Source of the DNA: an uncultured virus (IMG/VR IMGVR_UViG_3300031857_000150)
Taxonomy: Duplodnaviria; Heunggongvirae; Uroviricota; Caudoviricetes
Virus record (IMG/VR): IMGVR_UViG_3300031857_000150
DNA length: 64,000 nucleotides
Reading direction: 5' to 3' (one strand)
Below, piece by piece: positions 7,798-51,300 of this stretch (its first letter is position 1; every line of letters starts with the position of its first letter). The notes under the pieces are model-generated. The model ran no database searches, had not been told where the DNA came from, and saw only the letters and a program-made list of their open reading frames with translations. A program made the position numbers and the translations under genes.

Positions 7798-7800
7798 ATA

Positions 7801-11282: not shown

Positions 11283-11521
11283 TACCTGAATCTCGACGTC
11301 TTCTGGGCTATGCCCTTCGGTTGTTTTACAAACTGCTTACCTGATGCCTTGCCTGCCCGCTTTGCCTTCGTCGTTGCCGCATACTCCGCAGGACTCAACG
11401 CCTTGATAGCCGCCTCCGGTAGATACCGTTCACCAGTCTTCGAAGAAGGCTTGCCGCTCTTGGTGCGCCACTTCTGCTCACCCCACGCTTTCAGGCTTTG
11501 CTGCGGAGCTTTAATTGCCAT
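11282..11521 (-). CDS. small basic protein
   Basis: QQSLKAWGEQKWRTKSGK...GERYLP; exact start uncertain. Confidence 0.55.
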   Translation of the reverse strand: MAIKAPQQSLKAWGEQKWRTKSGKPSSKTGERYLPEAAIKALSPAEYAATTKAKRAGKASGKQFVKQPKGIAQKTSRFR

Positions 11522-20380: not shown

Positions 20381-20774
20381 GACTCACCCCTCTTGGGTCT
20401 TGCACGACGGCTTCTACACAATCGTCGTTCAGGATTCTGAACTCTTGACCGTGGATCTTTAGCCGCGTGCCAGTGTTAGGACGGGCGAGAATGAAATCCC
20501 CTTCCTTGCACCATGGACCGTTCGGAAACCGCTTCTCATCTTTGTAGCAATCCGGACCCATCTTTAGGACAAAAAAGACAGTAGCCAGTACCTTTTCCTC
20601 GTACATGGTTTGGTCTGCTTTGACGAGACCGCTGTCGAATTTCTCCTCGGCAGGCGGAAGCGCTACTAGGATGTGATATCCAGTCGGCTCCGGCAGTTGC
20701 TTTGCTTTCTCCTCCGCTGTTTCTGGCAACGTTGAAGTCTCGCCATCTTGACTGGCGATCAGTAATTCACTCAT
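20373..20774 (-). CDS. groES: GroES-like co-chaperonin
   Basis: P.GY.ILV...SGL...V.KMGPD.Y...WCKEGD...GTR.KI.G.EFRILNDD.V.AVV. Confidence 0.75.
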   Translation of the reverse strand: MSELLIASQDGETSTLPETAEEKAKQLPEPTGYHILVALPPAEEKFDSGLVKADQTMYEEKVLATVFFVLKMGPDCYKDEKRFPNGPWCKEGDFILARPNTGTRLKIHGQEFRILNDDCVEAVVQDPRGVSRA

Positions 20775-20958
20775 CAGAAAACTCCATTTTTTTTGCAAGG
20801 TCCAAGATAAAACCCTCCGCTAGCGATAGACCTCGGATCTCGCCGCAAAGTTTTTGATAGTCACCGAAGTCCTTGGCCGCGTTGTTAGCCACCGCTTCTA
20901 CTATCTGTTCGCGCTTGTCACGCACCTGTTTGAGGATGATTTCAAACGCCTTTTCCAT
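20767..20958 (-). CDS. hypothetical protein
   Basis: DYQKLCGEIRGL motif; between portal and GroES. Confidence 0.55.
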   Translation of the reverse strand: MEKAFEIILKQVRDKREQIVEAVANNAAKDFGDYQKLCGEIRGLSLAEGFILDLAKKMEFSDE

Positions 20959-29549: not shown

Positions 29550-29742
29550 CAAAAAGATGTTCACCCTGTACCTGATCGAGAATGACGAGGGTCAGGTCAG
29601 GGTGATAACCGACTACAGCGGAGAAGGCGACCGCTGCCTCGCGCTGGGTGTGGAAATCATGCAGTCGCTTGCCATGATCCAGCCCCATACAGGCGGCGGG
29701 CTATCCTTCGTTATGCCGAGCCAGACCGATGTTGAGCATTGA
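29542..29742 (+). CDS. hypothetical protein
   Basis: Last gene of the plus-strand array; overlaps the 3' end of the primase gene. Confidence 0.45.
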   Translation: MTSKKMFTLYLIENDEGQVRVITDYSGEGDRCLALGVEIMQSLAMIQPHTGGGLSFVMPSQTDVEH

Positions 29743-30558
29743 CTGGGTCAGGCTTTGGCTAAACCCGAACAATCCAACCCGACGATGATAGTCGTTAGCA
29801 TCCTCGCCGACACGATCAGACATCCAGATGGGCCAGCCTATTTCCTCTGCCGCCTTCTGCCCTGTGCCGGACTCGTCGTTATCTGCAATGACCAGCCCTT
29901 GCTCTAGCCCCTCTGCTACGCGCACCATGTTGCCAGCCGAGAAGCAAACATGAAGTGTGTACCTGCGCTTCAACTGCTTCATGGCCGCACGAACGGACAG
30001 CGCAGTCGCATACCCCTCGCACACAATGTTTACGCCCTTGTTATCGAAGGTAAAAGTCGCGCCGCTTGTGCGCTGACCATACAGAAACTTCTTCGTGCCA
30101 TCTTCCCAAATCTGCTGGACGCCGACCAGGCTCTTGCCAACTCTCATCGGTATGAGAAGGACAGGCTTGTTGTCGATCCGAAGAACGCTGCCCTGCTCAT
30201 CAGCAAACCCCTTGCTTGCAAGGTATTCGTGGGTGCTGTACCCGCTGTCGTTCAGCATACGCACCGCCTTGCCGACAGCCTCGGTCGCCAGCTTCTTACG
30301 CTGCTGATCTGCCTGCGCCTGACTGATGACGATGGATCGTATATCCAAGTTCAGACGGTCGATTGAGTCAGGCTTCCACAAACTGGTGACGGTAGATAGT
30401 GCATGGTTCTGCACGAACCCATGCGTACCCATGTATTTGCACGCGCCGTTGCGCTTGCGCGGGTGGTCCTGTGTTGGATACCGCTTCCACACGCCGATCT
30501 CTGGCAGCTCGTTAATGATGATGCCATGCGATCTGGCAAACTGAATGAAGTCCATCAA
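29701..30558 (-). CDS. TOPRIM-domain primase-like protein
   Basis: YL..KG, LLIPM, VCEGYATALS, IADND.SG.G and DAND motifs. Confidence 0.8.
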   Translation of the reverse strand: MMDFIQFARSHGIIINELPEIGVWKRYPTQDHPRKRNGACKYMGTHGFVQNHALSTVTSLWKPDSIDRLNLDIRSIVISQAQADQQRKKLATEAVGKAVRMLNDSGYSTHEYLASKGFADEQGSVLRIDNKPVLLIPMRVGKSLVGVQQIWEDGTKKFLYGQRTSGATFTFDNKGVNIVCEGYATALSVRAAMKQLKRRYTLHVCFSAGNMVRVAEGLEQGLVIADNDESGTGQKAAEEIGWPIWMSDRVGEDANDYHRRVGLFGFSQSLTQSMLNIGLARHNEG

Positions 30559-32042
30559 CCCCTCCCGATTGATTTCATAAACTGCTTTAGTTTCTTATCG
30601 ATGAACCGCTTGGTTTCTGCCGTGACCATCGCCGGTGCGTTGTCGATCAGACCTCTCGGCCAGACCCCAAACTTGTCGCGATATGTATGACTAGCCCGAC
30701 CTTTCGACCACCCCTGATAACGCATCAGCCAGACCATCTGGTTCCAGAAGTCCTGCTTACTTTCGCGCGGCATCCCGTTAGACAGCTCGACCATCTTGCC
30801 ATCCACCTCTGTCACCAGATTCTTGCGCTCACGAACGTGGCCGCAGTTGTAGCAGGTGTCACTACCAGACGGCCAGAGCGCAGCGCAGACGGGGCATTTG
30901 CTTTCTTTCTTCTGTCGTTCAGACGGCTCTTTCTTTGCCTTCTCTTTGCCATCTTCTAGCTTGCTGACACCATCCTCGAACAGCTCATCCCAATCCTGCC
31001 GGAACCGGAGATAGTTGCCGCTGTGATCCAACCAGACAGCAAACGGCTTGGCCTCTGGATTGTGTACGTTGGCACGCATCACCCTGCCCATCTGCTGCAC
31101 ATGGGAGGAGAACGACTTTGAGAATGGCCGAGCAGATACGCCGATCTGGACATACTCGTTGTCGAATCCTTTGGTCAAAATGTCACACGCTATCAAGCCG
31201 ATGATCTTACTGTCGGGCTTGGCAAAGTCTTCGATGACCTCGCGCTTCCAGTCCTCGTCATCTTTGTAGGACAGACTGACAAAGTTATAACCAAGCGCCT
31301 GAAACTTGGCTGCAAGATCAGCACCATGCGCGACACCTGCTGCGAACACCACCGTCTTGCGCGGCTCACCAAATATCTCGCGGGTTTTCTTTGCCCACTC
31401 GGTGACAACGTCGCCGGTAATCTTCATGCCGCGCTCGGTCGCATCAGCCTGGCTCCACTCGCCCGCAACTTTCTTTGCCCCTTCCATGTCAACTTCTTTG
31501 GCGATGAACACACGAAGCGGAACCAGACTACCCTGCTCGACTAGCTCTTTGGTCGTGATGGGTGATACGACATTCGAGTATGTGCCAGCTAGACCCTTCG
31601 TAAAGGGTGAGGCCGACAGCCCGACAACCTTGATGTGCGGGTTGTTCTTGATGAACTCGATAGTCTGCTTGCGCTGCGCGTGACACTCATCTACGACCAA
31701 CAGATCAAGGCCAGGAAACGAACCGCGCTTCTCCAGCGTTTGAGCAGAGCAGACTTGGATGTTTTCATAGGGCTTATACCGCCAGTGACCTGCTTGCAGT
31801 ACGCCGTGGTCCACGCTGTACTTGTCGAGGCGGCGGCTGGTCTGATCGCATAGAACGATCCGGTCTAGGATCATCGCGGCTTTGCTGCCCTTCTTCTTTG
31901 CCGCTTCCAACATGGCGATGGCAATCTCTGTCTTGCCACCGCCTGTGCCTAGATATAACAACTGACTTCTGTGTCCCCTTGCAAAACCTTCACGCAACTT
32001 CTGTATAGCTTGCTCTTGATAGTCCCGTAATTGCAGCGACAT
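30555..32042 (-). CDS. superfamily 2 (DExH) helicase with C-terminal Zn finger
   Basis: LRDYQ, TGGGKT, VDECH, LSASP, QQMGRVMR and CxxC-CxxC. Confidence 0.9.
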   Translation of the reverse strand: MSLQLRDYQEQAIQKLREGFARGHRSQLLYLGTGGGKTEIAIAMLEAAKKKGSKAAMILDRIVLCDQTSRRLDKYSVDHGVLQAGHWRYKPYENIQVCSAQTLEKRGSFPGLDLLVVDECHAQRKQTIEFIKNNPHIKVVGLSASPFTKGLAGTYSNVVSPITTKELVEQGSLVPLRVFIAKEVDMEGAKKVAGEWSQADATERGMKITGDVVTEWAKKTREIFGEPRKTVVFAAGVAHGADLAAKFQALGYNFVSLSYKDDEDWKREVIEDFAKPDSKIIGLIACDILTKGFDNEYVQIGVSARPFSKSFSSHVQQMGRVMRANVHNPEAKPFAVWLDHSGNYLRFRQDWDELFEDGVSKLEDGKEKAKKEPSERQKKESKCPVCAALWPSGSDTCYNCGHVRERKNLVTEVDGKMVELSNGMPRESKQDFWNQMVWLMRYQGWSKGRASHTYRDKFGVWPRGLIDNAPAMVTAETKRFIDKKLKQFMKSIGRG

Positions 32043-32087
32043 TGATTCCTCCTTCCGGCACACAAGCCCGCCGGTGTGGGCGTAGTT

Positions 32088-32894
32088 TTATCCTTCTAGT
32101 TTCTTGAGTTTCTTGAGAAGGGATGCGACCTGCTTTTTTAACTCACCGTTCTCACGCTGGTACATATCTCGACTGACGGTGATCTCTTTTAATTCTATCT
32201 CTAATGCACGAATCTGTGCGCGTAAATCTTTGATGATCGACTCTGCCTTCTCTCTTTTTATGGCATCAACACTCTCCGCTAACACCGCTGTAAGCTGATC
32301 TTGCAGGTCTTCGTTCTCAACCCGTAGATGATCCATCACAGCTCTCATTTCCTCGCGCTGGATTGCTTCCTCACTAAACTCTACCGTTAGAGGTTCTTCC
32401 TTCTGCTCTGGCTCCTTGCGCGTTACCACCTTGCCCATACGATTAAAGGTGGTCGTCGATTTCGCTTTGCCGAGTTCCTTACGCACCGCCGAAACAAACG
32501 TATGACTGAAACCACACTTCGCTGCTATGTCACGATCAGACCAGTCCTGCCATTCCAGATCAGACAACATGGCGGTAACGATCTTGCGCTTGGTCGCCGC
32601 CGATCTTTGTAAGCCGTGCGATTTGTTTGCGCCGAAAGAAAACAGAATCGCATCACGCAGCGTACCTTCATGCAGGTTGCACTTGAACCCAGGACTACCC
32701 GCCCGCTTGGCTGCGAAGTAACGGTGGAACCCGTCTGCTAGCCAGTAGCTAACGCCGTCATGAAACACTTCGAGCGGCGGAAACTCTGCGCCTGCAAGCA
32801 TGGCATCGGCATAGTCGGCAACCACGTTCTCATCAATCTTGTCGCGGCTCTGTGTGCCGCCGTTGATGATGATCTTTTCTAAACTGATGTTCAC
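32088..32894 (-). CDS. ParB/Srx-like N-terminal domain protein with HTH and coiled coil
   Basis: FPP..VF.DG..YWLADGFHR...WSDRDIA..CG.SH.FV..VR. Confidence 0.75.
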   Translation of the reverse strand: MNISLEKIIINGGTQSRDKIDENVVADYADAMLAGAEFPPLEVFHDGVSYWLADGFHRYFAAKRAGSPGFKCNLHEGTLRDAILFSFGANKSHGLQRSAATKRKIVTAMLSDLEWQDWSDRDIAAKCGFSHTFVSAVRKELGKAKSTTTFNRMGKVVTRKEPEQKEEPLTVEFSEEAIQREEMRAVMDHLRVENEDLQDQLTAVLAESVDAIKREKAESIIKDLRAQIRALEIELKEITVSRDMYQRENGELKKQVASLLKKLKKLEG

Positions 32895-34125: not shown

Positions 34126-34535
34126 TTTCTCCTCCCAATACGTATCTTTCCCTTCGTGACATGCCACTGGTTGTTTGCGTGGTGTCGTTCGAGGTCGTGG
34201 TGCAACAGTCCTTGCCGCACCCTGTCTATCCTAGACTGGCGCATCAGACTGTTCCGCTCCCTTCCGCCTGTTTGCTGACTATCCAAGTTAACCATCCAAT
34301 TAAGCGTTTCAATGTCTTTGTCGCGGTCGGTATCCCACAGCCTATCTGCCAGCGGCTTTAAGTAAATGCCCACAAAAGACTGTACGCGCATCTTGCTTGT
34401 GGGTGGCTGCCGCAACAAAGTCTTGTCAGGTATCTCTATGCCCAATCCCTTGAGCCACCACCATAGCTGCCCAACAGTTTTGTCCTGCCGAAACGCCTTG
34501 ATAAGCATCGCATCGTAGAGTCGCTGTTTATCCAT
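34122..34535 (-). CDS. hypothetical protein
   Basis: Translationally coupled ORF in the operon. Confidence 0.55.
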   Translation of the reverse strand: MDKQRLYDAMLIKAFRQDKTVGQLWWWLKGLGIEIPDKTLLRQPPTSKMRVQSFVGIYLKPLADRLWDTDRDKDIETLNWMVNLDSQQTGGRERNSLMRQSRIDRVRQGLLHHDLERHHANNQWHVTKGKIRIGRRK

Positions 34536-34776
34536 GGTTCATAATCCTGAATGCGATCTCTTCTGATGCGTACTCCCAGTCCTTACATTGATGACAGATC
34601 ATGGCCGCACGCTCACGCTCACGTTCCACGATCAACCCAGCAAACTGCAACAAGCAAGCAAGGTCGCCGTCCATCCCTTCGTCCGTGTGGAGAAACTGCT
34701 TGCCATCCCACTCATGCTTGACCCACGGCAGGATCCCCGCACTAACCGCCAACTCCAGCACCTCTTCTCTCTTCAT
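34528..34776 (-). CDS. small protein of the FA.L....ERE.(C/A)A..C family
   Basis: AGGAGG RBS; MKREEV...FAGLIVERERERAAMIC. Confidence 0.6.
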   Translation of the reverse strand: MKREEVLELAVSAGILPWVKHEWDGKQFLHTDEGMDGDLACLLQFAGLIVERERERAAMICHQCKDWEYASEEIAFRIMNHG

Positions 34777-34794: not shown

Positions 34795-34823
34795 AGAGTA
34801 ATACAGCACATGATTCTTGTCAA
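34795..34823 (-). promoter_or_regulatory. sigma70-like promoter for the replication block
   Basis: TTGACA-17 nt-TACTCT upstream of the RBS. Confidence 0.55.
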
Positions 34824-34865
34824 CACCCGTGTATTGCAAGTTCCGTGTTTAGGTTCCCCATGGGT

Positions 34866-35123
34866 GATAGCCCCCTCCTTGCGGAGCACACTCGGGGTAT
34901 CTGCCCTGCCCAGCTACTGATCTTGTCAGCAGCCTAGCTGTCCCAGAAGGCAACGATTATCTCGATGGAAGGTATGTCTCACCACTGGCCCTTCCCTCTT
35001 GTGCTATCCCTCGTTGAAGGTAGCGTGGCTCGCAGGCGGGTCAGACCTCGGCCAGTGTTCTCTCTCCAGCAGCCCATGCAGGCTCACTGCTATCGCGGGA
35101 GGTGCGCCCGGCTACCTGCCGGG
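34866..35123 (-). ncRNA. candidate highly structured non-coding RNA or structured origin
   Basis: At least six stems, a GCAA tetraloop, G-U pairs favouring the minus strand, and a possible pseudoknot. Confidence 0.45.
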
Positions 35124-35132
35124 ACAGGTAAC

Positions 35133-35399
35133 TTACTTCGTTGGCTCGTCAACAATCTTGCCGCGCTCAATACCTACGCGGTGCTTAATCTCAACGGCGT
35201 AATACGTAAAGTCCACGTAACCATGAGCTGCCTTGTCCGCAGCATATTCACGGCAGCGTTCTATGGCTGACTCAAGTGAGTCGTGAAGAAATTTAAAGTT
35301 GGCGCGAAGGCCAGATGGGGAACGCGCAAAGACGGCGTACTTTGGAGACGTTGCTTCGTGCAATTGCTGCACGGCCTGTCTGTTTGTCGGCTCTTCCAC
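35133..35399 (-). CDS. hypothetical protein
   Basis: AGGA RBS; lies between the structured elements. Confidence 0.5.
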   Translation of the reverse strand: MEEPTNRQAVQQLHEATSPKYAVFARSPSGLRANFKFLHDSLESAIERCREYAADKAAHGYVDFTYYAVEIKHRVGIERGKIVDEPTK

Positions 35400-35432: not shown

Positions 35433-35537
35433 AAAAAAACCCTTAAATTCTGGCTCTCCGTGTGTGCGCACGTTCCCTTTCGGGGCGAGAACCAAAACTT
35501 AAGGGCTTTGGATTTCTGTCACTGCGCACACAGTTAC
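35433..35537 (-). ncRNA. candidate C4/CI-like antisense-attenuator RNA
   Basis: 19-bp stem plus U7; loop carries a GAAA hairpin and 10 nt complementary to its own 5' leader. Confidence 0.5.
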
Positions 35538-35543
35538 ATGCGC

Positions 35544-35572
35544 ATGATAGGACAGGAACAGAATCTATGCAA
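35544..35572 (-). promoter_or_regulatory. sigma70-like promoter
   Basis: TTGCAT-17 nt-TATCAT. Confidence 0.6.
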
Positions 35573-35576
35573 GGGG

Positions 35577-35654
35577 GGTGACTACTCGCTGCACTGGCGC
35601 TTTCTCTCATCCGGTGGTGGTTCCGGGAACTCACCAGCATCCGCTTTCGTCACC
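35577..35654 (-). ncRNA. candidate small structured RNA with a bulged-G (AGUA/GAA) motif
   Basis: GGUGAC-GAA...AGUA-GUCACC; TATAAT lies just upstream. Confidence 0.4.
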
Positions 35655-35686
35655 GGCAATTATACAGGAACGATCTATTGTATGGG

Positions 35687-35719
35687 AAAAAAGACCCCGG
35701 CAAGGGGAAGAGCCGGGGC
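35687..35719 (-). terminator. Rho-independent terminator
   Basis: CCCCGGC-loop-GCCGGGG-TCTTTTTT on the minus strand. Confidence 0.65.
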
Positions 35720-35903
35720 TGGGAAAAAGCAGCGTCTCTCTCGCTGCTGGTCGCCAGGCATTCGGCAGAAGAGGAGGTTCACACGTGAAGGAGAGTGAAG
35801 TATCCGCCGAGCACCCGACCCAACGATACCCGATGCGCCCGCTCATGGCAACGTTTACATGAACAGATGGTTGCAACACATGGTTCTTGTTTTATTTCGA
35901 CTG

Positions 35904-39364: not shown

Positions 39365-39590
39365 GGATGACATTGCGAGATGGGCGCAGGAAGCCGCCAT
39401 CATGCCGCCTGATTGGGGTGCTACCGAGAACCAGTGGCGCAGTCTGGAAGCCTTTGCCAACCTAGTCGCAGCAGCGGAGCGCGAGGCGTGTGCGAAGGTG
39501 TGCGAAAACGAAATTGAAAAGGCAAAGCCTGTGTACTCTGTTACGGCAGAGAATGCATTGAAAGCTATCCGCGCAAGGGGGCAAGGATGA
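39357..39590 (+). CDS. EREACA-family small protein
   Basis: FANLVAAAEREACAKVCE...AIRARG. Confidence 0.65.
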   Translation: MTRDDIARWAQEAAIMPPDWGATENQWRSLEAFANLVAAAEREACAKVCENEIEKAKPVYSVTAENALKAIRARGQG

Positions 39591-40351
39591 TTGACGGTAA
39601 GCCCACCATCATGATCGGCACCCCTGCCTACGGCGGTGCCATGTTCATGGAGTACGTGGATAGTCTGGTGCGTAACATCGGATTCCTTGAGAGCAAGGGC
39701 ATCAAGACCCGCTGGCAGTTCATGAACAAAGAGGCACTGATTACTCGCGCCCGCAACGAGATCGCCCGCTACTTCCTTGATGAAACGCGGGATGACTATC
39801 TCATGTTCATTGATGCCGATATCTGGTTCCCGACCGACGGCATCTACAAGTTACTCCAGCACGAGAAGGAAATGGTGTGCGGGATCTACCCCAAGAAGTT
39901 CATGTTCTGGAACCGCATCCGTGACGCCGCGCTGCGGGGCGAGAAGGATATTGAGAAGTTCGGCTGCTCGTATGTACTGAATGCGGTGGACGACCGTGGC
40001 GATCCCGACGCTGTGCCGCTGAATGATGACGGGCTGGTGGAAGTTCTGCACGGCGGCACCGGCTTCATGCTGATCCACCGCAACGTGTTCAAGGAACTGC
40101 GATTCAAAGTACCAACGTACCGCACCAGCCTGATCCAGGATAACGGCCAGTTCTTGGCACCGCTGACCCGCGAGTTTTTCGGCACCAGCATTACCGAGCT
40201 TGGCCTGCTGTTGTCAGAGGATTACCACTTCTGCGAACTCTGGAAAAAAGAGGGCGGTAGAATTTACGCTGATCCCACAATTGAGTTACGTCACGTAGGC
40301 CAACATGTCTACGCGGGTGATCTCATGCGGGCAGGAAGAAACAATACGTAA
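39587..40351 (+). CDS. GT-A fold glycosyltransferase-like protein
   Basis: TPAYGG, LI.RARN, MFIDADI, GIYPKK, GTGFM and SEDYHFC. Confidence 0.7.
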   Translation: MIDGKPTIMIGTPAYGGAMFMEYVDSLVRNIGFLESKGIKTRWQFMNKEALITRARNEIARYFLDETRDDYLMFIDADIWFPTDGIYKLLQHEKEMVCGIYPKKFMFWNRIRDAALRGEKDIEKFGCSYVLNAVDDRGDPDAVPLNDDGLVEVLHGGTGFMLIHRNVFKELRFKVPTYRTSLIQDNGQFLAPLTREFFGTSITELGLLLSEDYHFCELWKKEGGRIYADPTIELRHVGQHVYAGDLMRAGRNNT

Positions 40352-40361
40352 GGAGAAACAA

Positions 40362-40601
40362 ATGTTACGAGATGGACAGTTCATCAAAGAGCCGCCGCCA
40401 AAGATCGGCAGCCACTACGTACCCAAGTACTACCAGACCGTTCTCGAAGGCCAGCCGATAGAAGGCGAGAGCCGGTGGGAAATGTTCTACCGCAAGAACA
40501 TCTCGCCGTTCGATGTCGGCGCGATCATGATCCTGATGTACGTGGTTATCGCAGTGGTAGTTGCTGTCTTGCGTGAGTTGTTTCACCTGCTGTTTGGATG
40601 A
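40362..40601 (+). CDS. small membrane protein
   Basis: AAGGAG RBS; C-terminal TM segment. Confidence 0.55.
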   Translation: MLRDGQFIKEPPPKIGSHYVPKYYQTVLEGQPIEGESRWEMFYRKNISPFDVGAIMILMYVVIAVVVAVLRELFHLLFG

Positions 40602-40798
40602 CCCGCAAACTATTCGAGATGGCTAACCGAGCGGCGGAAGATGAGGGACTGGTCTACGCCCCGGACTCTGCGGCGATGTCTTGGATGCGCAAGTTCTCCA
40701 AGATGATCGCCGTGGCAGAGCGCGAGCGGTGCGCCCGGCTATGTGAAGAAGCAGGGCAGCACGACATGGCAGCAGTTATCAGAAGGGGAGAGGAATGA
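40598..40798 (+). CDS. ERERCA-family small protein
   Basis: FSKMIAVAERERCARLCE. Confidence 0.55.
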   Translation: MTRKLFEMANRAAEDEGLVYAPDSAAMSWMRKFSKMIAVAERERCARLCEEAGQHDMAAVIRRGEE

Positions 40799-41055
40799 AC
40801 AGAGATGACATTATCCGCATGGCGAAGGAGGCGGAGGCGTGGAGTTTGGTAGACCATGACGGCATCGCCGCGCTTGAACGCTTTGCCAACCTAGTCGCAG
40901 CAGAGGAGCGCGAGGCGTGTGCGAAGGTGTGTGAGGCTGAAGGTGAACGAGTCGATGCGTCTTGGGTAAGTTGCGCGTTCGCCATCCGCGAGAGAGGTGC
41001 GCCAGCATTGGAACGCCTAAACAAAGCCGCTGAAGATAACGGGGAGCCGCTATGA
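40795..41055 (+). CDS. EREACA-family small protein
   Basis: MNRDDI...FANLVAAEEREACAKVCE. Confidence 0.65.
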   Translation: MNRDDIIRMAKEAEAWSLVDHDGIAALERFANLVAAEEREACAKVCEAEGERVDASWVSCAFAIRERGAPALERLNKAAEDNGEPL

Positions 41056-41258
41056 CTAAAGAAGAAGCATGGCTTATGTGGATGAACGAATCCAAGCACT
41101 ACATTGAGTACGACTGGGACACGATCAAGAAGTCCTCGTACTGGCAAGCGTTTTCCCGTGGTTGGGATGCGGCATCTGTCAACGTTAACGGATGGGACGA
41201 TGCCTACAAGATGGGCATGGAGGCAGGCAAAGAAATGGAGAAGAGCCATGCAGTATAA
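41052..41258 (+). CDS. hypothetical protein
   Basis: Coupled ORF; AF..GWDA motif. Confidence 0.55.
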   Translation: MTKEEAWLMWMNESKHYIEYDWDTIKKSSYWQAFSRGWDAASVNVNGWDDAYKMGMEAGKEMEKSHAV

Positions 41259-41418
41259 AAAGGAACTCATACGCGAGCTGCGCGATGTAGCAGTCCTATT
41301 CCATGCTAGTCAGGAGCTACCGTACAAGCTGTTGGAAGTGCTTGATAAACACCTGCCCCATATTGGCGACGTGTGCTGTGAACGCGGGTGCATTGAGTAT
41401 CAGGAGAAGAATCCTTGA
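41248..41418 (+). CDS. hypothetical protein
   Basis: MQYKKELIREL...; coupled ORF. Confidence 0.45.
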   Translation: MQYKKELIRELRDVAVLFHASQELPYKLLEVLDKHLPHIGDVCCERGCIEYQEKNP

Positions 41419-42356
41419 AGGTCGCTGTCCATAACCACTACGAGTTCATCACCCGCGACGGCTTCCTGTTCAAGAACGAGAACAGCAACGTCGGTCACAA
41501 CCTGCTACGCCCGTGGGTAGAGCTGTACAAACTGTGCCAGTCCACCGGCATCGAGATGTACACGCTTGACCAGGTTGATCCGGCAGAGCTGGACTTCGTG
41601 ATCTACATGGATCGCCCGCAGGTAGAGCCAGAGATCGGCAACGCCAAGAAGGCACTGATCCTGTACGAACCAGAGCTTGTCCTGCCGCAGAACTGGGATG
41701 CTGCCTATCACGATCAGTTCATGAAGGTGTTGACGTGGGATGACAAGCTGGTCGGGCGCGGCAACTACGAGAAGCATAACTTCACCGTGGACTGGAGCAG
41801 CCGCACGCAGCCCATCATCGACTGGAACAAACGCAAGCTGCTGTGCATGATCCAGACGGCCAAGAACTACGACCATCCGAACAGCCTGTACCTAAAGCGG
41901 ATAGAAGCCATCCTCTGGTTCCAGCAGAACGCCATGTGGGAGTTCGACCTGTACGGCAGAGGCTGGGACATCCGGCACTTCTTCTGCGCCAAGGGCACGA
42001 CAGATAACAAGATCGATCTCTACAGCAATTACAAGTTTGCCCTGACGTTCGAGAACTGTGACAACGCCACGGGCTACATCAGCGAGAAGATGCTGGACGC
42101 CTTCTTGGCAGGCATCGTGCCTATCTACTGGGGCGCACCCAACGTCCACGATCACATCCCGCGTGAGTGCTTTATCGACGCGACGGACTTCGGCAACTGG
42201 GAAGAACTGTACGGCTACCTGCGCGGCGTGACGTACGAGCGGTACTGCGAGTATCAGCAGTGCATCGACGAATGGATCCGGTCAGAGAAGGCCATCCCAT
42301 TTAGCAACGACCACGAGATCAAACAGTTGTACAAGTTGATTGAGGAGGCGAGATGA
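41415..42356 (+). CDS. GT10 (alpha-1,3-fucosyltransferase-like) glycosyltransferase
   Basis: DLYG.GW...YKFALTFEN....GYISEK..DA..AG.VPIYWGA. Confidence 0.85.
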   Translation: MKVAVHNHYEFITRDGFLFKNENSNVGHNLLRPWVELYKLCQSTGIEMYTLDQVDPAELDFVIYMDRPQVEPEIGNAKKALILYEPELVLPQNWDAAYHDQFMKVLTWDDKLVGRGNYEKHNFTVDWSSRTQPIIDWNKRKLLCMIQTAKNYDHPNSLYLKRIEAILWFQQNAMWEFDLYGRGWDIRHFFCAKGTTDNKIDLYSNYKFALTFENCDNATGYISEKMLDAFLAGIVPIYWGAPNVHDHIPRECFIDATDFGNWEELYGYLRGVTYERYCEYQQCIDEWIRSEKAIPFSNDHEIKQLYKLIEEAR

Positions 42357-43066
42357 ACATCGCTGTAGTCACCAGCACACGAGGTCGCCCGACTATCCGG
42401 CAGGCTATAGACAGCGTGAAGGCGCAAACACGGGGAGCCAGACACTATGTCTTCGCACACGGTAAAGATTGTTGGGACGCTGTATCGGCAAATACAGAAG
42501 GCAGTGACGTTGATGTTGTTTATCTTCCAGTTGCCAACGGGGGTGGGGGTTATGCTATGGCTCCTGTTTACGCTGCTGCTCCTTACTTGGTCGGTGAAGA
42601 CCTGATTTTCTACCTCGATGACGATAACCTCTACGACCCTGACCATATCGAATCCATCACCACACTAATAGAGCAGCATGATCTGGGCTGGGCGTACAGC
42701 CTGCGCAAGATCGTAGACAACGACGGCAACTGGATCTGTGATGACAACTGCGAATCACTAGGCTGTTACCCGAACTCGCACCAGCAATACTTGGTGGACA
42801 ACTCCTGCTATGCGGTGAAGACGGAATATGCCCGCAAGCACAGCCACGCTTGGTATGTACCCGTCGTATCAGACCGTTCGTTTCAAGCGGCGCTGATGCG
42901 GGACAAGATCAAGTGCGGCACTACCGGCAGACACAGTGTCAGCTACCGACTGTCAGCAGATGGCAGCGGCGGCATGACCAAAGAGAAATTCCTCGGCAAC
43001 AACGAGTGGATGGCACAGCATCGTCCAGGCTTTGAGTGGACAAAAAAACAGATCTTTAACTTCTAG
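42353..43066 (+). CDS. GT2-family glycosyltransferase
   Basis: AI.SV.AQT...IFYLDDDN.Y.P.H. Confidence 0.75.
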   Translation: MNIAVVTSTRGRPTIRQAIDSVKAQTRGARHYVFAHGKDCWDAVSANTEGSDVDVVYLPVANGGGGYAMAPVYAAAPYLVGEDLIFYLDDDNLYDPDHIESITTLIEQHDLGWAYSLRKIVDNDGNWICDDNCESLGCYPNSHQQYLVDNSCYAVKTEYARKHSHAWYVPVVSDRSFQAALMRDKIKCGTTGRHSVSYRLSADGSGGMTKEKFLGNNEWMAQHRPGFEWTKKQIFNF

Positions 43067-43075
43067 GAGAGCAAT

Positions 43076-43840
43076 GTGGCAAAACTATATATCGCGTCGC
43101 CCATGTACGGTGGACTTTGCTATGGCTATTACGCGCAGTCATTGATGACCTTGCAGAACAACCTGCGGGACAATCGCGTGGACATGGCTTGCAGCTTTCT
43201 GTTCAACGAGTCCCTGATCCAACGCGCACGTAACGCGCTTGTCCACGGGTTCCTGAAGACGGATTACACCCACATGATGTTCATTGATGCTGATATCCAC
43301 TTCAACCCGCAGGACGTTCTCCCGATGCTGCTGGCTGACAAGCCGATCATCTGCGGCATCTACCCGAAAAAAGAAATCAACTGGAATCAAGTCCACGCTG
43401 CTGCTGTCGCAGGCGTACCGCCGCACGAACTCCGCAAGTACAGCGGCTCCTTCGTGGTCAACCTAGTTAACTACCAGAACGAACAGCGCGTAGAACTGGA
43501 CAAGCCAGTAGAGATTTGGAACGGCGGCACGGGCTTCATGATGATCAAGCGCGAAGTGTTCGAGCAGCTCAAAGATCATGTGCCCACCTACATCAATGAC
43601 ACCAATGATCTGAGCGGTGCGATGGGCAACGACCGTGTGCATGAGTTCTTCGCCACCAGCATCGAGCCGATTGGCGAACGCCTGCTGTCCGAGGACTATC
43701 ACTTCTGCAAGATCTGGCGCGACAAGTGCGGCGGCACCGTGTGGGCAGCACCGTGGGCACAGCTCGGCCATATCGGCACCCATAAGTTTGACGGCGTTCT
43801 GACAGAGAAGCCTCAACCACCACAACCACAAGAGGTATAA
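43076..43840 (+). CDS. GT-A fold glycosyltransferase-like protein, paralog of 39587-40351
   Basis: SPMYGG, RARN, MFIDADI, GIYPKK, GGTGFM and LLSEDYHFC. Confidence 0.7.
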   Translation: MAKLYIASPMYGGLCYGYYAQSLMTLQNNLRDNRVDMACSFLFNESLIQRARNALVHGFLKTDYTHMMFIDADIHFNPQDVLPMLLADKPIICGIYPKKEINWNQVHAAAVAGVPPHELRKYSGSFVVNLVNYQNEQRVELDKPVEIWNGGTGFMMIKREVFEQLKDHVPTYINDTNDLSGAMGNDRVHEFFATSIEPIGERLLSEDYHFCKIWRDKCGGTVWAAPWAQLGHIGTHKFDGVLTEKPQPPQPQEV

Positions 43841-45073
43841 ATGTTCATACCCGGCAAGACTTACATCCCTGCCTCCGGGCAGGTGGTGGGCGACCGCGAG
43901 AAGGAGTTGATGCACGAAGCCGTTGACCGTGGGTGGTTGACGGCAGGTGCGTTCAACCGGCAACTGGAAGAGGGGCTGACCAAGTTCCTCGGCTGCAAGG
44001 CGGTACGCACCACCAGCTCTGGTAGCTCTGCCAACCTGCTGGCCTTCTCCGCGCTTACCAGCCCGTCGCTAGGCAAGCGTGCGGTACAGAAGGGCGATGA
44101 AGTCATCAGCGTCGCCTGCGGCTTCCCTACCACCATAGCGCCGATAGTTCAGTTCGGTGCCGTGCCGGTGTTCTTGGATGTCAACAGCACCCTGAACATC
44201 GACACGCGCAGGCTGGAGGACGCCATCACCAGCAAGACCAAAGCCATCATGATCGCGCACACGCTGGGCAATCCGTTCAACATAGACGCCATCATGGAGA
44301 TCGCTGACCGCTATCAACTGTGGGTCATTGAGGATACCTGTGACGCGCTCGGCTCCCGCTGGCGTGGCCGCAACGTCGGCACGTTCGGTGATCTGGCTAC
44401 CCTGTCTTTCTTCCCGGCGCATCACATCACGACGGGCGAAGGCGGGGCAGTCATCATCAACAACACCAAGCTGTCCCGACTGGTGGAGTCCTTCCGCGAC
44501 TGGGGCAGGGACTGCTGGTGTGAGCCTGGACAGAACAACACCTGCAAGCGCCGGTTCGATCAGCAGTTCGGCGAGCTGCCGCACGGCTATGATCACAAGT
44601 ACGTGTACACCCATCTGGGCTACAACCTGCGTATCACCGAGATGCAGGCCGCCTGTGGCGTGGCACAGCTTGAGAAGCTGTACAAGTTCATCTCCGCCCG
44701 TCGGTCGAACTACGGCTTCCTGCGGGAGCGGCTGGATACTTACGAACAGTTCTGGCTGCCGACGGTTTACCCAGACGCTACCCCAAGCTGGTTCGGGTTC
44801 CCGATCACCATCAGCCCGACAGCCAAGTTCAGCCGGGACAAACTGACACGGTATCTGGAAGACCACGCTATCGGCTGCCGCCTGCTGTTTGCTGGCAACG
44901 CAATCAAGCAGCCGTTCATGAAGGGTCAGAACTACCGTGTGCACGGACCGCTGGAGAACACGGACTACGTGATGAACAACACGTTCTGGCTAGGCGTACA
45001 ACCGGCGCTGACAGAGGAGATGCTGACCTACGTCTGCGACACCATCGACGCTTTCATGAAGGAAAACGGATGA
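43841..45073 (+). CDS. rfbH: CDP-4-keto-6-deoxyglucose 3-dehydratase (RfbH/DdhC, E1)
   Basis: PG..YIP.SG; SGSSANL; SFFPAHHITTGEGG (His at the aminotransferase Lys position); GRDCWC.PG..NTC Fe-S motif; GYDHKY. Confidence 0.9.
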   Translation: MFIPGKTYIPASGQVVGDREKELMHEAVDRGWLTAGAFNRQLEEGLTKFLGCKAVRTTSSGSSANLLAFSALTSPSLGKRAVQKGDEVISVACGFPTTIAPIVQFGAVPVFLDVNSTLNIDTRRLEDAITSKTKAIMIAHTLGNPFNIDAIMEIADRYQLWVIEDTCDALGSRWRGRNVGTFGDLATLSFFPAHHITTGEGGAVIINNTKLSRLVESFRDWGRDCWCEPGQNNTCKRRFDQQFGELPHGYDHKYVYTHLGYNLRITEMQAACGVAQLEKLYKFISARRSNYGFLRERLDTYEQFWLPTVYPDATPSWFGFPITISPTAKFSRDKLTRYLEDHAIGCRLLFAGNAIKQPFMKGQNYRVHGPLENTDYVMNNTFWLGVQPALTEEMLTYVCDTIDAFMKENG

Positions 45074-46860
45074 AGGTATCTGACTACATTTGCTCAAAGA
45101 TCAAAGAGCTAACAGGGACGGATACCGTATTCCTGCTGTCCGGCGGTGGCATGATGCACCTGCTGGACAGCGTGGGTAAAACGGACGGCCTGAAGTACAT
45201 GCACCTGCACCACGAGCAGTCCTGTGGATTTGCCGCCTACGCCTACGGCAGGACGGTGAACTCTACGGGTGTGCTGTTTGTGACCTCTGGCCCCGGCGGT
45301 ACGAACGCTATCACCGCTGTGGCATCGGCATTCGCAGACAGCGTACCCATGCTGATCATCTCTGGGAACATCACCCAGACCTTCTCGGCACACGGACTGA
45401 ACCTGCGCATCCGTGGTTTCCAAGAGCTAGATATCGTCGAGGTAGTCAAACCTATTACCAAGTACGCCAAGTTCATCTCGTCTGCCAGCGATGTCAAACA
45501 CGAGCTGGAGAAGGCTGTCTTCCTTGCCAAGGACGGACGCCCCGGCCCTGTGTGGCTGGACATCCCGCTAGATGTACAGTGCGCTGACATCACGCCCGAT
45601 ACCCTTGAGGGCTACACCGGCTTCTCGTCTAACGCTGCGCCGACGATGGATCTGGTGCAGGACATCCGGCAACGCCTGCAATCAGCCAAGCGACCGCTGA
45701 TCCTGTTCGGCAACGGCGTGTTCACCAGCGGCGGCAAGGATGCCGCTAGGAAGATGGCACAGCGGTTCTACATCCCGGTGCAGACAACGTGGGGTGCGGT
45801 CGATCTGATCCCCGATAACTACGTCACTTACTTCGGACGGTCGAACTCTTTCGGCCCACGCTATCCCAACATCATCATCCAGAACGCCGACTACATCCTG
45901 TCCATCGGGGCGCGGCTTGGCGTACAGCACACCAGCCATAACATCGAAACGTTTGCCAGAGGCGCGTTCGTTGACATGATCGACCTTGATCCGGCAGAGG
46001 CGAACAAACCAGGGCTGAATGTCGGCAGGCACTCGCGGGTCTGCGGCACCAAGCTGATCAACGCGCTGCTGGATGAGCCACCTGTCTGGGCATCCCAACA
46101 GTGGATGGACTACTGCCGCACGGTACGCGACAAGTTCCCTGTTGCGCCCAACCTGCAAGCGGTACGAGAAGATCACTACGTAGATCCGTACTACTTCTAC
46201 GCCGAGCTAGGCAGCCAGCTACCAGACGACGCGGTGCTGACGCCGACAGGGTCAGGGCAGGCGTTCATCATCGGCCATCAAGTGCTGGAGATAAAAGAGA
46301 ACACCCGGATGTTTGGTGCCAAGAACCTAGCCATGATGGGTTCGTGCCTGCCGTCTGCTATCGGTGCGCACATGGCAACCGGCAAGCAGGTCATCTGTGT
46401 CACAGGCGACGGCGGCATACAACTCAACCTGCAAGAGCTAGCCATCATCCAGCACCACAACCTGCCCATCAAGATATTCGTCTTCAACAACGCCGGGTAT
46501 CACGCCATCAGGATCACGCAGGAGAAGTACTTCGAGAGCAGGTATGTTGGATCTACTGAGCATACCGGCGTACACATTCCGTCCTTCTCCAACGTGGCTA
46601 ACTGCTACGGCCTGCGCTACCGCAAGCTACACAGCAACATCCAAGTCAAGACGCTGGTAGCCAACATACTGACTACTGACGGACCAGAGATCATTGAGGT
46701 CATCCTTGATCCGCACAAGCCGACGGTGCCGACTATCGGTTCCTACATGCGAGCTGATGGCACGATGGGTTCGCGTCCGCTGGAAGACATGGCACCGCTG
46801 GTAGACAGGGATGAACTGCGCAGCCTGATGTACATAGACTTGGTTGAGGAGAAGGCATGA
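45070..46860 (+). CDS. ThDP-dependent enzyme (acetolactate synthase-like; YerE-like by context)
   Basis: GGG.MHL.DS, HHEQ, TSGPGGTNA, GRPGPVW.DIP.D and GDGG...NN ThDP motif. Confidence 0.8.
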   Translation: MKVSDYICSKIKELTGTDTVFLLSGGGMMHLLDSVGKTDGLKYMHLHHEQSCGFAAYAYGRTVNSTGVLFVTSGPGGTNAITAVASAFADSVPMLIISGNITQTFSAHGLNLRIRGFQELDIVEVVKPITKYAKFISSASDVKHELEKAVFLAKDGRPGPVWLDIPLDVQCADITPDTLEGYTGFSSNAAPTMDLVQDIRQRLQSAKRPLILFGNGVFTSGGKDAARKMAQRFYIPVQTTWGAVDLIPDNYVTYFGRSNSFGPRYPNIIIQNADYILSIGARLGVQHTSHNIETFARGAFVDMIDLDPAEANKPGLNVGRHSRVCGTKLINALLDEPPVWASQQWMDYCRTVRDKFPVAPNLQAVREDHYVDPYYFYAELGSQLPDDAVLTPTGSGQAFIIGHQVLEIKENTRMFGAKNLAMMGSCLPSAIGAHMATGKQVICVTGDGGIQLNLQELAIIQHHNLPIKIFVFNNAGYHAIRITQEKYFESRYVGSTEHTGVHIPSFSNVANCYGLRYRKLHSNIQVKTLVANILTTDGPEIIEVILDPHKPTVPTIGSYMRADGTMGSRPLEDMAPLVDRDELRSLMYIDLVEEKA

Positions 46861-47771
46861 AGATCGCCATACTCGGAGCTACTAGCCACATAGCCAAGGA
46901 TCTGATCTTGTCTTTCGAAGACCGGCATCAGTTGTATCTGTATTCCCGCAGGCCGCCTGCCGTGACGCGATGGATTGTGCAGAGTAATCTCCAGAACTAC
47001 ACAAACTATGATTACACCGAGTTCCGTAATCACATCCAGTTTGATGCCATCCTGAACTTTGTCGGCGCGGGTGATCCTGAAGCCATCAAGAGTCTCGGTA
47101 AACGGATTTTCGGCATCTCAGAAGCGTATGACCAAATGGTGCTGGACTATCTTCAAGACCATCCCGACTGCCTGTACATCTTCATGTCTAGCGGCGCTGT
47201 CTTCGGTGACAGTTTTCCGACACCTGTCAATAATCAGACACGTTCTGTATTTCCTATTAATAACATTCAGCCGCACCATTACTACGGTTTGGCAAAGGCA
47301 CAGTCGGAATACCGACACAGGATGTCTGACCGGAACATCATCGACCTGCGCATCTTCAACTACTTCAGCAGCACGGCCAACCTGCAAAGCCAGTCCATGA
47401 TCTGCGGGATGCTGCGCTCTATCCTTGAAGGCAAGGAGTTTGTGGTTGACCGCGTGGACGTCACCAGAGATTACGTTGGCCCCAATGACTTCCACCAGAT
47501 GATCAACGTCCTGCTAAACCAGGAGAAGATCAACACGGCGATAGACTTGTACAGTCGATTGCCTATCTCCAAGGACTTGCTGATAGAACACATGAAAGAG
47601 CGATACGACTTGCGGGTGTGGGTGCGTAACGACGCGGTGGCTCATGCAACAGGCGTGAAAGAGAATTATTATTCTACGAACCTCGAAGCCTACGCGCTGG
47701 GCTACAGGCCAACGCTAACGTCGATTCAGACGATCTTCGAAGAAGCGGACAAATTACTGAAGTGCAATTAA
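46857..47771 (+). CDS. NAD-dependent epimerase/reductase (extended SDR)
   Basis: ILGATSHIA, SSGAV.G, YGLAK (YxxxK), LRIFN and RDYV. Confidence 0.8.
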   Translation: MKIAILGATSHIAKDLILSFEDRHQLYLYSRRPPAVTRWIVQSNLQNYTNYDYTEFRNHIQFDAILNFVGAGDPEAIKSLGKRIFGISEAYDQMVLDYLQDHPDCLYIFMSSGAVFGDSFPTPVNNQTRSVFPINNIQPHHYYGLAKAQSEYRHRMSDRNIIDLRIFNYFSSTANLQSQSMICGMLRSILEGKEFVVDRVDVTRDYVGPNDFHQMINVLLNQEKINTAIDLYSRLPISKDLLIEHMKERYDLRVWVRNDAVAHATGVKENYYSTNLEAYALGYRPTLTSIQTIFEEADKLLKCN

Positions 47772-48092: not shown

Positions 48093-48363
48093 GGAGTATA
48101 TGAACGAAGTAGCAGAGGTAGGCTGCGTTCTTTGCCACCATCTCGGCTACGGTCACTCGCCTGCTCACCTGCACCATCCGCGAGATGCGGTGGGCGGAGC
48201 GCAACGTGCGTCAGATTGGCTGGTGATACCCCTCTGCCCTGAACACCACCAAGGACAGTCTGGCTACCATGGGTTAGGAAGCAAAGGGTTTTATACACGC
48301 TACAAGCTCACAGAGTGGGATCTGATGGCGATGACTATTGAGCGCCTGCATAACTCTTCTTAA
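48079..48363 (+). CDS. Ref-like (recombination enhancement) HNH-type nuclease
   Basis: GCVLC...PA.LHH...G..QRAS...VIPLCPEHH.G..G.H. Confidence 0.7.
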   Translation: MKSVKEYMNEVAEVGCVLCHHLGYGHSPAHLHHPRDAVGGAQRASDWLVIPLCPEHHQGQSGYHGLGSKGFYTRYKLTEWDLMAMTIERLHNSS

Positions 48364-51300
48364 CTTCAATTCTCGCCTCTTCCATCTGCTGCGCAAGCTC
48401 GCCGATCAATATCTTGATCCGGTCAATCTCTTCCTTCTTCTGTGCGCCCGTCATCGTTTCATCGTTACGGATCGCCTGTACAACCTGGCGCATCTTTGCC
48501 ATGTCCTTCGACGCGTTGTCGTAGAACTTAGCCATCGCAATCTTGTCGCCCTTCTCTGCCAGGATTTCTTGCACCTTGTCTGCCTGACCTAGCTGCGCGA
48601 AGTGCCGCATGTCGGCGTACGCTTGGCTGATCTCTTTGTTGTTCTCGTAGAAGGCTGTGACGTACTTGGATTGCGTAGACGGTAGCGACTTGATGAAACC
48701 CATCGACATGGTCTCTGTCCAGTTGGCGTCAGGGTAGGCAGACTTGGAGAACGGCATCACGGCATAGTGCGACGTTGCCGAGATGGTGCCGCCCAGCCAG
48801 CCAAGATATCCCTTGATGGCATAGTCCACCTGTACCGGCGATACCTCGGTAGCTTCCGGCAAGAAGACATTCGATACCTTGGATAGCGCGATAGCCAGCG
48901 GGCTAGTTCTCTCCGCTATACGCTCGGCCTTCGACAGGCGTTCCATGCCAGCAGTTTCAATCGGTGCCCCGGTGAAGCTGTCCTTGTTAGCGTACAGATC
49001 AACCAGCGGCTTGATAATCTGTGGGATTGGGTTGATCGCAAAAGTATCCGTCAGCATCCGGCTAAGTGACTGCCCGAACACTTTGCCCTCTGCGCCTTGA
49101 TCCACGATCTGCTCGACCACGCGCTCTGCCAGCGTACCCATAGCGCCAATCTCAAATGGCTTCGGCACACGGATTGCCGTATCCATACCCGGCAACTTGA
49201 ACCACCAGAAGTTGTCACGGTCCCACTGTTCCCGCTTCTTGTATTCCTCGTCATCCTTGAATGCCATGTACAACATCAGAGATGCCAGCACAACAGCGCC
49301 CATGACGATGCTGAACTGCTCTGCCCGCTGCTTATCTGTGGCTTCTATCGGTTTGCCAGTGGCCGTGTTGTAGATTACTCGGCTAGTAGGAATCACACCG
49401 TCACGACCCAGTTTGTACAAGCCCTGCACACGCGCATTCAAGAATGGAATTACCTGCGTCACCAAGCGGAAGGCAGGCCACGACCCTTGCATGGAAAAGT
49501 CCAGCATATCCCGTGCGTAGAACGATGCCTCCAGGTGCGTATAATTTTTCTTGGTTTCTGGATTGACTGTTTCTCTTAGCTGCTTGTACAGCGCCATACG
49601 GTTGGCGGATTCCGATTTGTTGCCAAGCTCCTGATACGCCCGCCATGCCTTACCGATACCGGCCTGAATCTTCTTCTCGTTATCCAGGATGTTCTCACCC
49701 TTGACACCGCTGTCTAGTAGGCGCTTGATCAGTTTGGCCTGATCGCCTTCGTAAGCAGAACCAAAGTTGAAGATAGCCCCGCCTGCCAGCGCAGAGATGT
49801 GCGCCGGGTTATTGCGATCAGATGCTGCCCAGCCCTCAATCACGTTAGCAAACGGATTCTTCTTCAGATCAGTGACAGCGATAGCCGAGATAGAGTCGCG
49901 GAACAAGTTGCGAATCTTGAAAGCAGGCGACAGCGTGACACCGAATTGCAGCATGTTCTTGAAGTCGCGGGCCAGATCGAGGAACTTGGACTTCGGCCCC
50001 ATGTACCCGATAGACATGATGGATTCCAGCAACAACGGTTCTGCGATGTCAAAGTACGCAGGCTTGCCATCGATCATGGTCTTGATCATGCCCTTGCCGC
50101 TGGTGGTGAACTCTGGCTTTAGCTTGCCGTCGTTGATTAACTCACCTGACTTGCTGCTGTAGACCTTGCCATCGCGCCACTCCAGCCCGACCTTTAGGTT
50201 TGGATACGCACCACCCAAATCCATCGCCGCCCGGACGGTGGCATTAGCAGCCTCGTTCTTCATGGACGCAGACAGGATGTGGCTCCAGTTGCGTAGCGTG
50301 TTCTCCATCAGATCGCCGAATGGTTTCTCTCCACCCTTCAGCGCCTTCGAGAAGTACTGGTTGATCAGCCCTGACTTGGTAGCCGCGCCCTGCACGTCAC
50401 CGTTCTCATCCATCACCTTGTAGAACGGGATGTAGTTGATGTCACGGCTGTAGACCTTGAACGCTTCTTTGTCGATGATGCCCTGCTTGTAAGCAATACG
50501 CAGCACCGAGCGGTTCAGCTCGTTCATGTCCTTCTGAACCTGCTTGTACACCTCTAGTCTGGACTTGTTGCCGATCTTTCCTTCAGCCAGCTCTGCTCGT
50601 CGCGCTACGATATCTCTATTCACAGATGGTGCTTTACCCTGCGCCACCAGTTGCGCGTCACGTTGCAACGCCACCCAGATTTGATACCGATCCACCTCGT
50701 TGCCCACGGGCTCCAATACTTTTAGCAAACCCTTGGTCTTTGGAGCAATGTCGAGAGCGCCGTCAGTCAGCTTGACCTGGCCGTTAAACAGTATGCCCTC
50801 CAGCGCACCGTCGATAGTCTTCGACATGCGGGCTTTCATGTAGGCTTCTTCGCTGATGTCTTTGATCGAGCGGTACTGGTCAGCCACACCTTGCGCCAGC
50901 TTCATGAAAAAGCCGTCACGCATCCCATCTATCTTGTCGATGATGGTCTTCTTCTCCGGAGCAAACACTGGTTCGAGCGCAGAGTACAGATCGTCAGGCA
51001 CACCATCGAACTGACTCTTCTTCAGAGTGCGCTTCTGTAACGCTTTTTGCGCAGCGGCTTTGGCTTTCTGTGCGGTGGTTTTTGGTTCTTCTTCTGTTTC
51101 CGCTAGCGTTTCAAACTTACGCCCCACCATCCTGTACATGGTGTCGATGTCTTGGATTGGAGTGGTCAACACTTCTTCCGACAGGGCAACCAATCGCTCT
51201 AACGCGCTCTGCTGGCTCTTGTTGATACCAAGCAGCTTGCGGATAGCTTCGACAAATACTTTGAATCCGTTTGACCGCTTGTACTCAATACCAGCCAGGT

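Follow-up and report, generated by a model that had tools for sequence, protein, structure and literature searches.

The stretch of viral DNA analyzed here (the window, 64,000 nt) encodes on its minus strand, at 34850..35106, a conserved, strand-specific and heavily knotted non-coding RNA structure. It is ~257 nt long in the window, at least 215 distinct full-length homologous sequences are present in phage and metagenome contigs, and it belongs to no family tested, being absent from Rfam 15. The interpretation that fits best, on circumstantial support, is an R-loop or primer RNA marking a phage replication origin in the manner of ColE1 RNA II, with an unrelated fold; we give this a probability of roughly 0.4. 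An initial annotation of the window had proposed a large uncharacterized structured phage ncRNA at 34866..35123. The homologs and their covariation bear out the RNA and its location, but its limits are corrected to 35106 (5′) and ~34850 (3′).

Filtered to less than 95%, 80%, or 70% identity, the homologs listed number 164, 71, and 30, respectively; the mean pairwise identity is 60%. Diverged copies were first found at loci fetched via neighboring proteins; a motif pattern then gave at least 120 matches in viral and at least 120 in metagenome contigs, a second pattern again at least 120, and a profile matched 400 of 613 loci (loci overlap between scans). The RNA (model columns 6-246) has a median length of 240 nt, range 221-303, and in the window the CM match covers 34941-35106 with 141.5 bits (runner-up 11.2). 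Lengths modulo 3 are evenly spread (56/55/53 in 164 sequences), so there is no conserved reading frame. Over 32 helix pairs there are 557 G-U cells vs 22 A-C cells, which identifies the minus strand, also the one originally proposed, as the RNA strand. Together these two observations indicate a non-coding, strand-specific structure. Positions conserved at 97% or more number 47, 25 inside the search patterns and 22 outside.

Evidence from the single sequence is weak, since its minimum free energy is no better than that of dinucleotide shuffles (minus strand z -0.66, with 45 of 200 shuffles as good; plus strand z -0.39). Checking covariation in the homologs rescued most of the structure. When 46 sequences with less than 80% identity were aligned by plain MAFFT, the 48 proposed pairs were 94.2% paired vs 72.4% in shuffles, and 37 showed double changes. 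A tree-based null was also simulated 150 times for 164 sequences, as an approximation and not with R-scape; the 18 highest-scoring column pairs all beat every null value, each being at least 93% Watson-Crick or G-U. The covariation supports a predicted fold in which the 5′ domain is knotted, the P4 loop forms a pseudoknot, a single isolated pair links a loop to a bulge, and the 3′ tail wraps around the P5 loop.

The 5′ knot (35055..35106, the first 52 nt; all coordinates of the fold are minus strand) has helices 92-100% paired. It begins with a 3-bp hairpin, P0 (35106-35104/35096-35094), whose loop pairs with a downstream strand (PK1, 35101-35098/35067-35064; 21, 26, and 17 shared parsimony changes), and includes a lone pair, C35097-G35090 (13 shared changes), and P2 (35085-35081/35074-35069), with a bulged near-invariant G35070. 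Three non-adjacent P2 loop bases, G35079, U35076, and G35075, pair with CAC 35057-35055 (PK2; shared changes 5 and 7). P3 (35026..35054) follows; its loop has a near-invariant ACC (35041-35039) that is among the 22 conserved positions outside the search patterns and is without a proven partner. The loop of P4 (35002..35025) pairs at 35016-35011 with 34956-34951, the strand after P5 (PK4); pair 97-162 has 18 shared changes and pair 99-160 has 7 of 7, and the window has a compensatory A-U in place of G-C. PK2 (E 0.02) and PK4 (E 0.15) are both below the null maximum. The P5 hairpin (34964..34998) contacts the tail through two helices, loop GGUGA 34983-34979 with UCACC 34867-34863 and loop CAU 34976-34974 with AUG 34861-34859, the second 97-100% paired. 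In all 161 sequences that have the anchors (the other 3 of the 164 were dropped), the pair next to GGUG is Watson-Crick, but it has only ~3-4 independent changes and E 0.82 in the unanchored test. A kissing loop between P3 and P5 as the main pairing is disfavored, as it involves only invariant bases and the next position is 32% paired.

Toward the 3′ end, 34908..34950 holds P6 (34950-34942) and P7 (34939-34908), whose distal part is variable. A lone tertiary pair, U34947-A34935, connects the P6 loop to a P7 bulge; it is CG in 87 sequences and UA in 76, and 13 of 13 changes are shared, above all 150 nulls (control pairs share 0-2). A variable P8 and the tail (34851..34906) complete the RNA; within the tail, a G-run and a mini-hairpin of GNRA type, weak at 71% paired, precede the conserved terminal CCUA(UG). 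There is no terminator at the 3′ end, and a U-tract in just 26 of 163 homologs. With 5-6 crossing interactions in ~250 nt, the fold is unusually dense and new, and there are enough homologs for structure work.

All the complementary stretches listed in the initial annotation are present in the sequence. Its drawing anticipated P2 (AGCCU/GGGCU, 100% paired in 54 sequences), P4 (GCUAC../..UAGC), P5, and the variable distal P7 (GCUGCUGA/UCAGUAGC), but missed the true pseudoknots and included a long-range stem, CACUGGCC/GGCCAGUG, that is 47.9% paired vs 46.5% in shuffles. A search pattern built on that stem gave mostly chance matches, with homologs at 4 of 118 loci. The GGAAGG/CCUUCC helix is real (P5, with double changes at 9 of 9 pairs), but is a nested hairpin rather than the pseudoknot proposed, and the CUCC-GCAA-GGAG extension exists in a subset of homologs only. 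The small CCCGGC/GCCGGG hairpin at 35107..35123 (minus strand) is present but outside the conserved RNA, traveling with an 88-aa ORF (35133..35399, minus strand; no Pfam or PHROG match). This cassette is optional: one contig joins 35106 straight to 35433, without the hairpin.

Upstream of the cassette is a leader (35433..35537, minus strand) consisting of a hairpin, H1 (35537-35518), a long stem, H2 (35509-35440), and a U-tract (35439-35433). The loop of H1 is complementary to an internal loop of H2 (35470-35461). A promoter-like TTGCAT-17-TATCAT (35544..35572, minus strand), found by eye and below the scan threshold, lies just before H1. The arrangement recurs: a U-tract is found no more than 45 nt upstream of the RNA in 88 of 122 cases (4/125 and 3/115 in downstream controls, 38/157 in a window 150 nt upstream), it closes a long stem in 80 of the 88, and in 87.5% of these 80 an upstream hairpin and the stem interior are complementary over 7 nt or more, vs 8.5-9.4% in controls. 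The leader family is not in Rfam, and many different matching loop pairs occur across phages. As a leader with an upstream complement and terminator read-through, it (and only it) resembles those of P4 CI/seqA, which controls replication genes (PMC4825925), and Gifsy-1 IsrK; unlike these, the window leader has no Rfam C4-type match, and nothing downstream of it in the window makes a convincing seqC-like target. The spacer between leader and RNA may hold ORFs or tRNA-like pieces: 3′ halves with a T-arm and CCA-like end occur just upstream of the RNA at five loci (L149, L176, L254, L283, L298), and true tRNA genes lie upstream in two genomes (G002, G012).

Covariation cannot separate RNA from single-stranded DNA (PMC5737381), and primase and helicase genes are nearby, so the structure might be imagined to act as DNA, in primase recognition or as a single-strand origin. 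We consider this very improbable: a promoter-like site and leader stand directly upstream, UUCG-type and GNRA loops are present, and 3-bp helices and lone pairs would be unlikely to be stable in DNA. Among contigs from three RNA-labeled runs and one probable DNA run, two short ones, X6 (166 nt) and X7 (231 nt), map onto the element at depth 2-3. This coverage is not evidence of transcription, as presence of this stretch was the basis for choosing the runs, and 28 of 30 bins are covered by X8.

Reading along the minus strand, the RNA lies between the 88-aa ORF and a second promoter-like site, TTGACA-17-TACTCT (34795..34823, minus strand; by eye from the sequence), which would serve the downstream genes for a ParB-like protein (32088-32894), a DEAD-type helicase (30555-32063), and a Toprim primase (29701-30558), all on the same strand. 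A promoter-like site no more than 90 nt downstream is found for 66 of 162 homologs, vs 0/123 and 3/112 in controls. The initial placement upstream of a replication operon is right within one 49-72 kb phage family, but in other carriers the RNA is followed by a major capsid gene, terminase genes, an initiator fragment, or a convergent gene facing it (L289, L309); in G003 it sits between scaffold and capsid genes. Eight of the 15 carriers examined belong to the 49-72 kb family, and the remaining seven are 33-38 kb long and differ in their head genes (T7-type, HK97-type, Terminase_3). No protein family is common to all 15 (blastp, E 1e-5; the best is in 11), and there is no dedicated adjacent partner gene of the Retron, DRT, or OMEGA type, the neighbors being variable. 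Many freshwater bacterial viruses carry the RNA in one copy; this was so in 42 of 43 records, all chosen for holding it.

HK022 put is a nascent-RNA antiterminator. Control in cis of this kind, or by a translation switch in which the tail hides a Shine-Dalgarno G-run and AUG, would suit an RNA that heads operons, that in 88 of 122 cases is right behind a terminator-like leader, and whose tail has alternative pairings. In 67 of 162 homologs an ATG is at exactly +9 from the G-run, and a few of these are the start codon of a real gene. Most of the +9 ORFs, however, are unrelated and have 1-13 codons (a conserved peptide at the 3′ ATG was rejected), and an ATG is missing at this place in the window. 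Many of the downstream genes have a separate promoter, and some neighbors are convergent. We regard cis-acting control as improbable.

The assignment to no known family, made already in the initial annotation, is upheld by searches of Rfam 15, in which the window had no match at gathering score, only weak matches to the neighboring terminator at E up to 10, and 20 homolog loci nothing near gathering score. Searches of GenBank phages and plasmids gave no full match and short partial matches at most. In cellular genomes the pattern matched only 4 MAG contigs; 7 of 8 matches to a looser pattern were due to chance, and among 120 sampled genomes of the Burkholderiales MAG's family none was found by the CM, with a limited number of candidates scored. 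No description of the RNA was found in the literature, where six sequence motifs matched no papers. Its motifs are absent from the searched supplements of PMC10690425, whose IMG/VR candidates are 29-151 nt; fragments may be listed in the larger files of that paper, in the supplement of PMC5737381, or in the database of preprint 10.64898/2026.10.21.760802. Possible resemblances to the loops of phi29 pRNA and the anti-Shine-Dalgarno tail of 16S were given no weight.

Genomes lacking the RNA are informative about its position. It lies no more than 5 kb upstream in 19 of 40 loci selected by ParB, and occurs in 3 of 39 records, most of which were selected because they had no match. Two close relatives (exonuclease 96% and 89% identical) lack it but retain the leader, behind which stand unrelated non-coding elements of 455 and 386 nt. 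All four near-complete, non-provirus non-carriers of the same family (G044, G055, G069, G078) have the leader and another non-coding element; they are four of six complete non-carriers, of which the other two, a provirus (G061) and a distant phage (G075), are without a convincing leader. The slot behind the leader thus has several other occupants. Family A, an unlisted element of ~450 nt with three short invariant motifs, is found at 11 loci (L120 at 4025-4479, minus strand; L128; L675-L685), preceded by the same kind of leader or ORF cassette and with our RNA within 2 kb at none of the 11. Family B (L126, 2069-2454, minus strand) is likewise unlisted, and there are further unlisted occupants in L187 (from 660, plus strand), L127, and L205 (from 990, plus strand). 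L205, L217, L219, and L134 have the start of the 5′ knot in common and then diverge, a partial sharing that suggests the knot may be a module.

One occupant is known. The Rfam motif RF02932 (Betaproteobacteria-1) is found in 2 of 11 non-carriers and none of 22 carriers, although the numbers are small. It occurs in L214 (3048-3173), L211, L213, and L193, behind the leader in L214 and L213, in the latter with an HNH-like ORF in between; in L214 the ORF-free stretch runs on past the RF02932 model. In L214 it takes the same position as our RNA, 21 nt after the leader U-tract, but it is an unrelated 120-nt model, absent from all 22 carriers. RF02932 and the Burkholderiales MAG suggest betaproteobacterial hosts. 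The occupants look mutually exclusive, and a single, always-filled, exchangeable slot suggests one required job, which would tie together several orphan RNAs, including an Rfam motif without a known role.

One candidate for this job is self-cleavage or processing by a new class of ribozyme, freeing the downstream transcript from the leader. New self-cleaving classes have been found as unrelated folds in one genomic place (PMC10085705), and the compact core, lone tertiary pairs, and bulged near-invariant bases of the RNA are compatible with catalysis, as are the conserved positions outside the search patterns (22 of 47). There is no positive evidence for it, however: no Rfam ribozyme matches, even at E up to 5-10, no family core motif or model of the known small self-cleaving ribozymes was matched in the window or 20 homolog loci, and the occupants tested (family A in L120, family B in L126, and that of L187) match no ribozyme family. 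On these grounds a ribozyme is a little less probable still than control in cis.

As a further possibility, the RNA might act in trans as an RNA-only particle or decoy of the ROOL/GOLLD kind, cut from the read-through transcript, protected by its end knots, acting on host machinery or defense, and possibly multimeric through the P3-loop ACC. ROOL and GOLLD are ornate phage ncRNAs with pseudoknots; no protein is known to partner them, they sometimes lie close to tRNAs, and some of the pairs that covary in them form between molecules (PMC12286853). Likewise our RNA has no universal phage protein to go with it (11 of 15 genomes at best), very diverse downstream genes, often with their own promoter (66 of 162) and convergent in L289 and L309, and in some carriers tRNAs or tRNA-like pieces directly upstream; the alternative occupant RF02932 is classed as "Gene; sRNA" in Rfam. 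It is much shorter, however (median 240 nt, vs >500 nt for the class, with 581 nt for ROOL and more than 800 nt for GOLLD), and has no Rfam match to them; ROOL has 10 highly conserved bases and 3 pseudoknots, whereas this RNA has 22 or more conserved bases free of search bias, and 5-6 crossing interactions. With a terminator-like leader ahead of it, the RNA would be produced in smaller amounts, there was nothing to indicate high abundance, and a one-for-one swap by unrelated folds would be left unexplained. A role in trans is the main rival to an origin, but appears unlikely, if less so than ribozyme or cis-acting functions.

Initiation of replication fits best because the genomes have no DNA polymerase A, with almost no O-like initiators in the 49-72 kb family and some C-terminal-only fragments of these, and because the RNA has no 3′ terminator and a ColE1-like 3′ end. 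The initial annotation had remarked on a primase and helicase, both found, and on the lack of a polymerase; polymerase A, the only one covered by the search, is absent from 47 of 47 records, but this does not discriminate, since non-carriers lack it too. Among 18 carriers of 49-72 kb, one (G004) has a match to the phrog_270 initiator, short and at E 2e-4. O-like initiators reduced to their C-terminal part, without an HTH match, start no more than 20 nt from the RNA 3′ end in G022 (8220-8468) and G032 (16849-17079), and G019 has a C-terminal-only O-like gene 1.1 kb away (34432-34731). In G022 this ORF begins at the conserved 3′ AUG of the RNA.

ColE1 RNA II and the MRB/CLV RNA-based plasmid replicons are similar in being structured non-coding transcripts without a terminator (PMC3035462). 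The likeness to ColE1 RNA II may extend to a G-run, CCTATG, and A-tract at the 3′ end and to antisense-type control upstream; the present RNA differs in being half as long, pseudoknot-rich, and found in tailed phages with their own primase, and the complementarity measured, that within the leader, is on the same strand, with no RNA I identified on the opposite one. Homology is not indicated, with no ColE1-type plasmid in the blastn matches of two homolog queries and no Rfam match. When a profile of the 3′ end was run on ColE1 (~13,240 positions), the G-run/CCTATG/A-tract site came fourth ungapped and first with a short gap, in a test that was post hoc (the plasmid was picked by hand and the gap allowed afterwards) and with a profile that also scores ordinary ribosome-binding sites, two of which are in the top five window matches. 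The matched site is ~550 nt after a promoter-like stretch, where PMC5043065 places the persistent hybrid. The plasmid motifs ARRPOF, GEBRO, and PAGEV offer a precedent in their length (223-349 nt) and suspected link to replication (PMC5737381), but have no Rfam match to the window or 20 homolog loci.

By the origin model, host RNA polymerase would start at the leader promoter, and the leader, by pairing of the H1 and H2 loops followed by the U-tract, would let only part of the transcripts pass. The RNA would fold during synthesis, with the P3-loop ACC first holding the GGUG of the P5 loop, while the G-rich tail would stay hybridized to the template. The resulting R-loop might open the DNA near 34850 for the phage helicase and primase or a host helicase, with or without the involvement of RNase H and of priming by Pol I. 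Once its tail is captured by the P5 loop, the RNA would be in a released, inactive state.

Several observations count against an origin. In three genomes with T7-type capsids (G003, G020, G024) there is an O-like initiator with an HTH, its gene far from the RNA, and GC skew has no consistent switch at the RNA in 15 genomes. The other slot occupants have no obvious 3′ motif in common, the non-carriers G061 and G075 lack a convincing leader, and the 32% pairing noted above tells against the P3-P5 kiss of the model. If the origin reading is correct, ColE1-type initiation by RNA would also operate in abundant tailed phages, and would account for their replication in the absence of polymerase A and a full initiator.

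A broader proposal, which we hold only tentatively and consider doubtful as a whole, is that a large group of polymerase-less freshwater phages start replication from an RNA-defined origin, a gated leader feeding one slot whose RNA replaces the origin-binding domain of the initiator and switches between tail-free R-loop and tail-captured states. At least five unrelated folded RNAs would then be interchangeable in the slot: the present one, families A and B, that of L187, and Betaproteobacteria-1.

Elsewhere in the window, no reverse transcriptase was found among the proteins scanned, and ARAGORN finds no tmRNA or tRNA. A sugar-modification cluster (39587-47771, plus strand) comprises four glycosyltransferase-like genes, a DegT aminotransferase, a TPP enzyme, and an epimerase. 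Three endonuclease VII-like genes (11511-11969, 16163-16732, 19832-20380, minus strand) are found amid the head and tail genes, along with a GroES-like gene (20373-20798, minus strand), and a 1977-aa polyvalent protein of LPD38/ddrB-ParB type is encoded at 48335-54268 (minus strand). A stretch of ~780 nt (7066-7842) without ATG-started ORFs of at least 70 aa overlaps a GTG-started 323-aa ORF (6826-7797), and is probably a start-codon artifact. Close to the leader, 35680-35815 (minus strand) has C/U-rich loops and a terminator, and is probably a small RNA; it is retained in L120 and L126 and has a weak likeness to Burkholderia anti-hemB (E 0.14). Behind a TATAAT promoter-like site is a short self-closing structured element (35575-35655, minus strand), of which L120 has an identical copy and L126 a variant.
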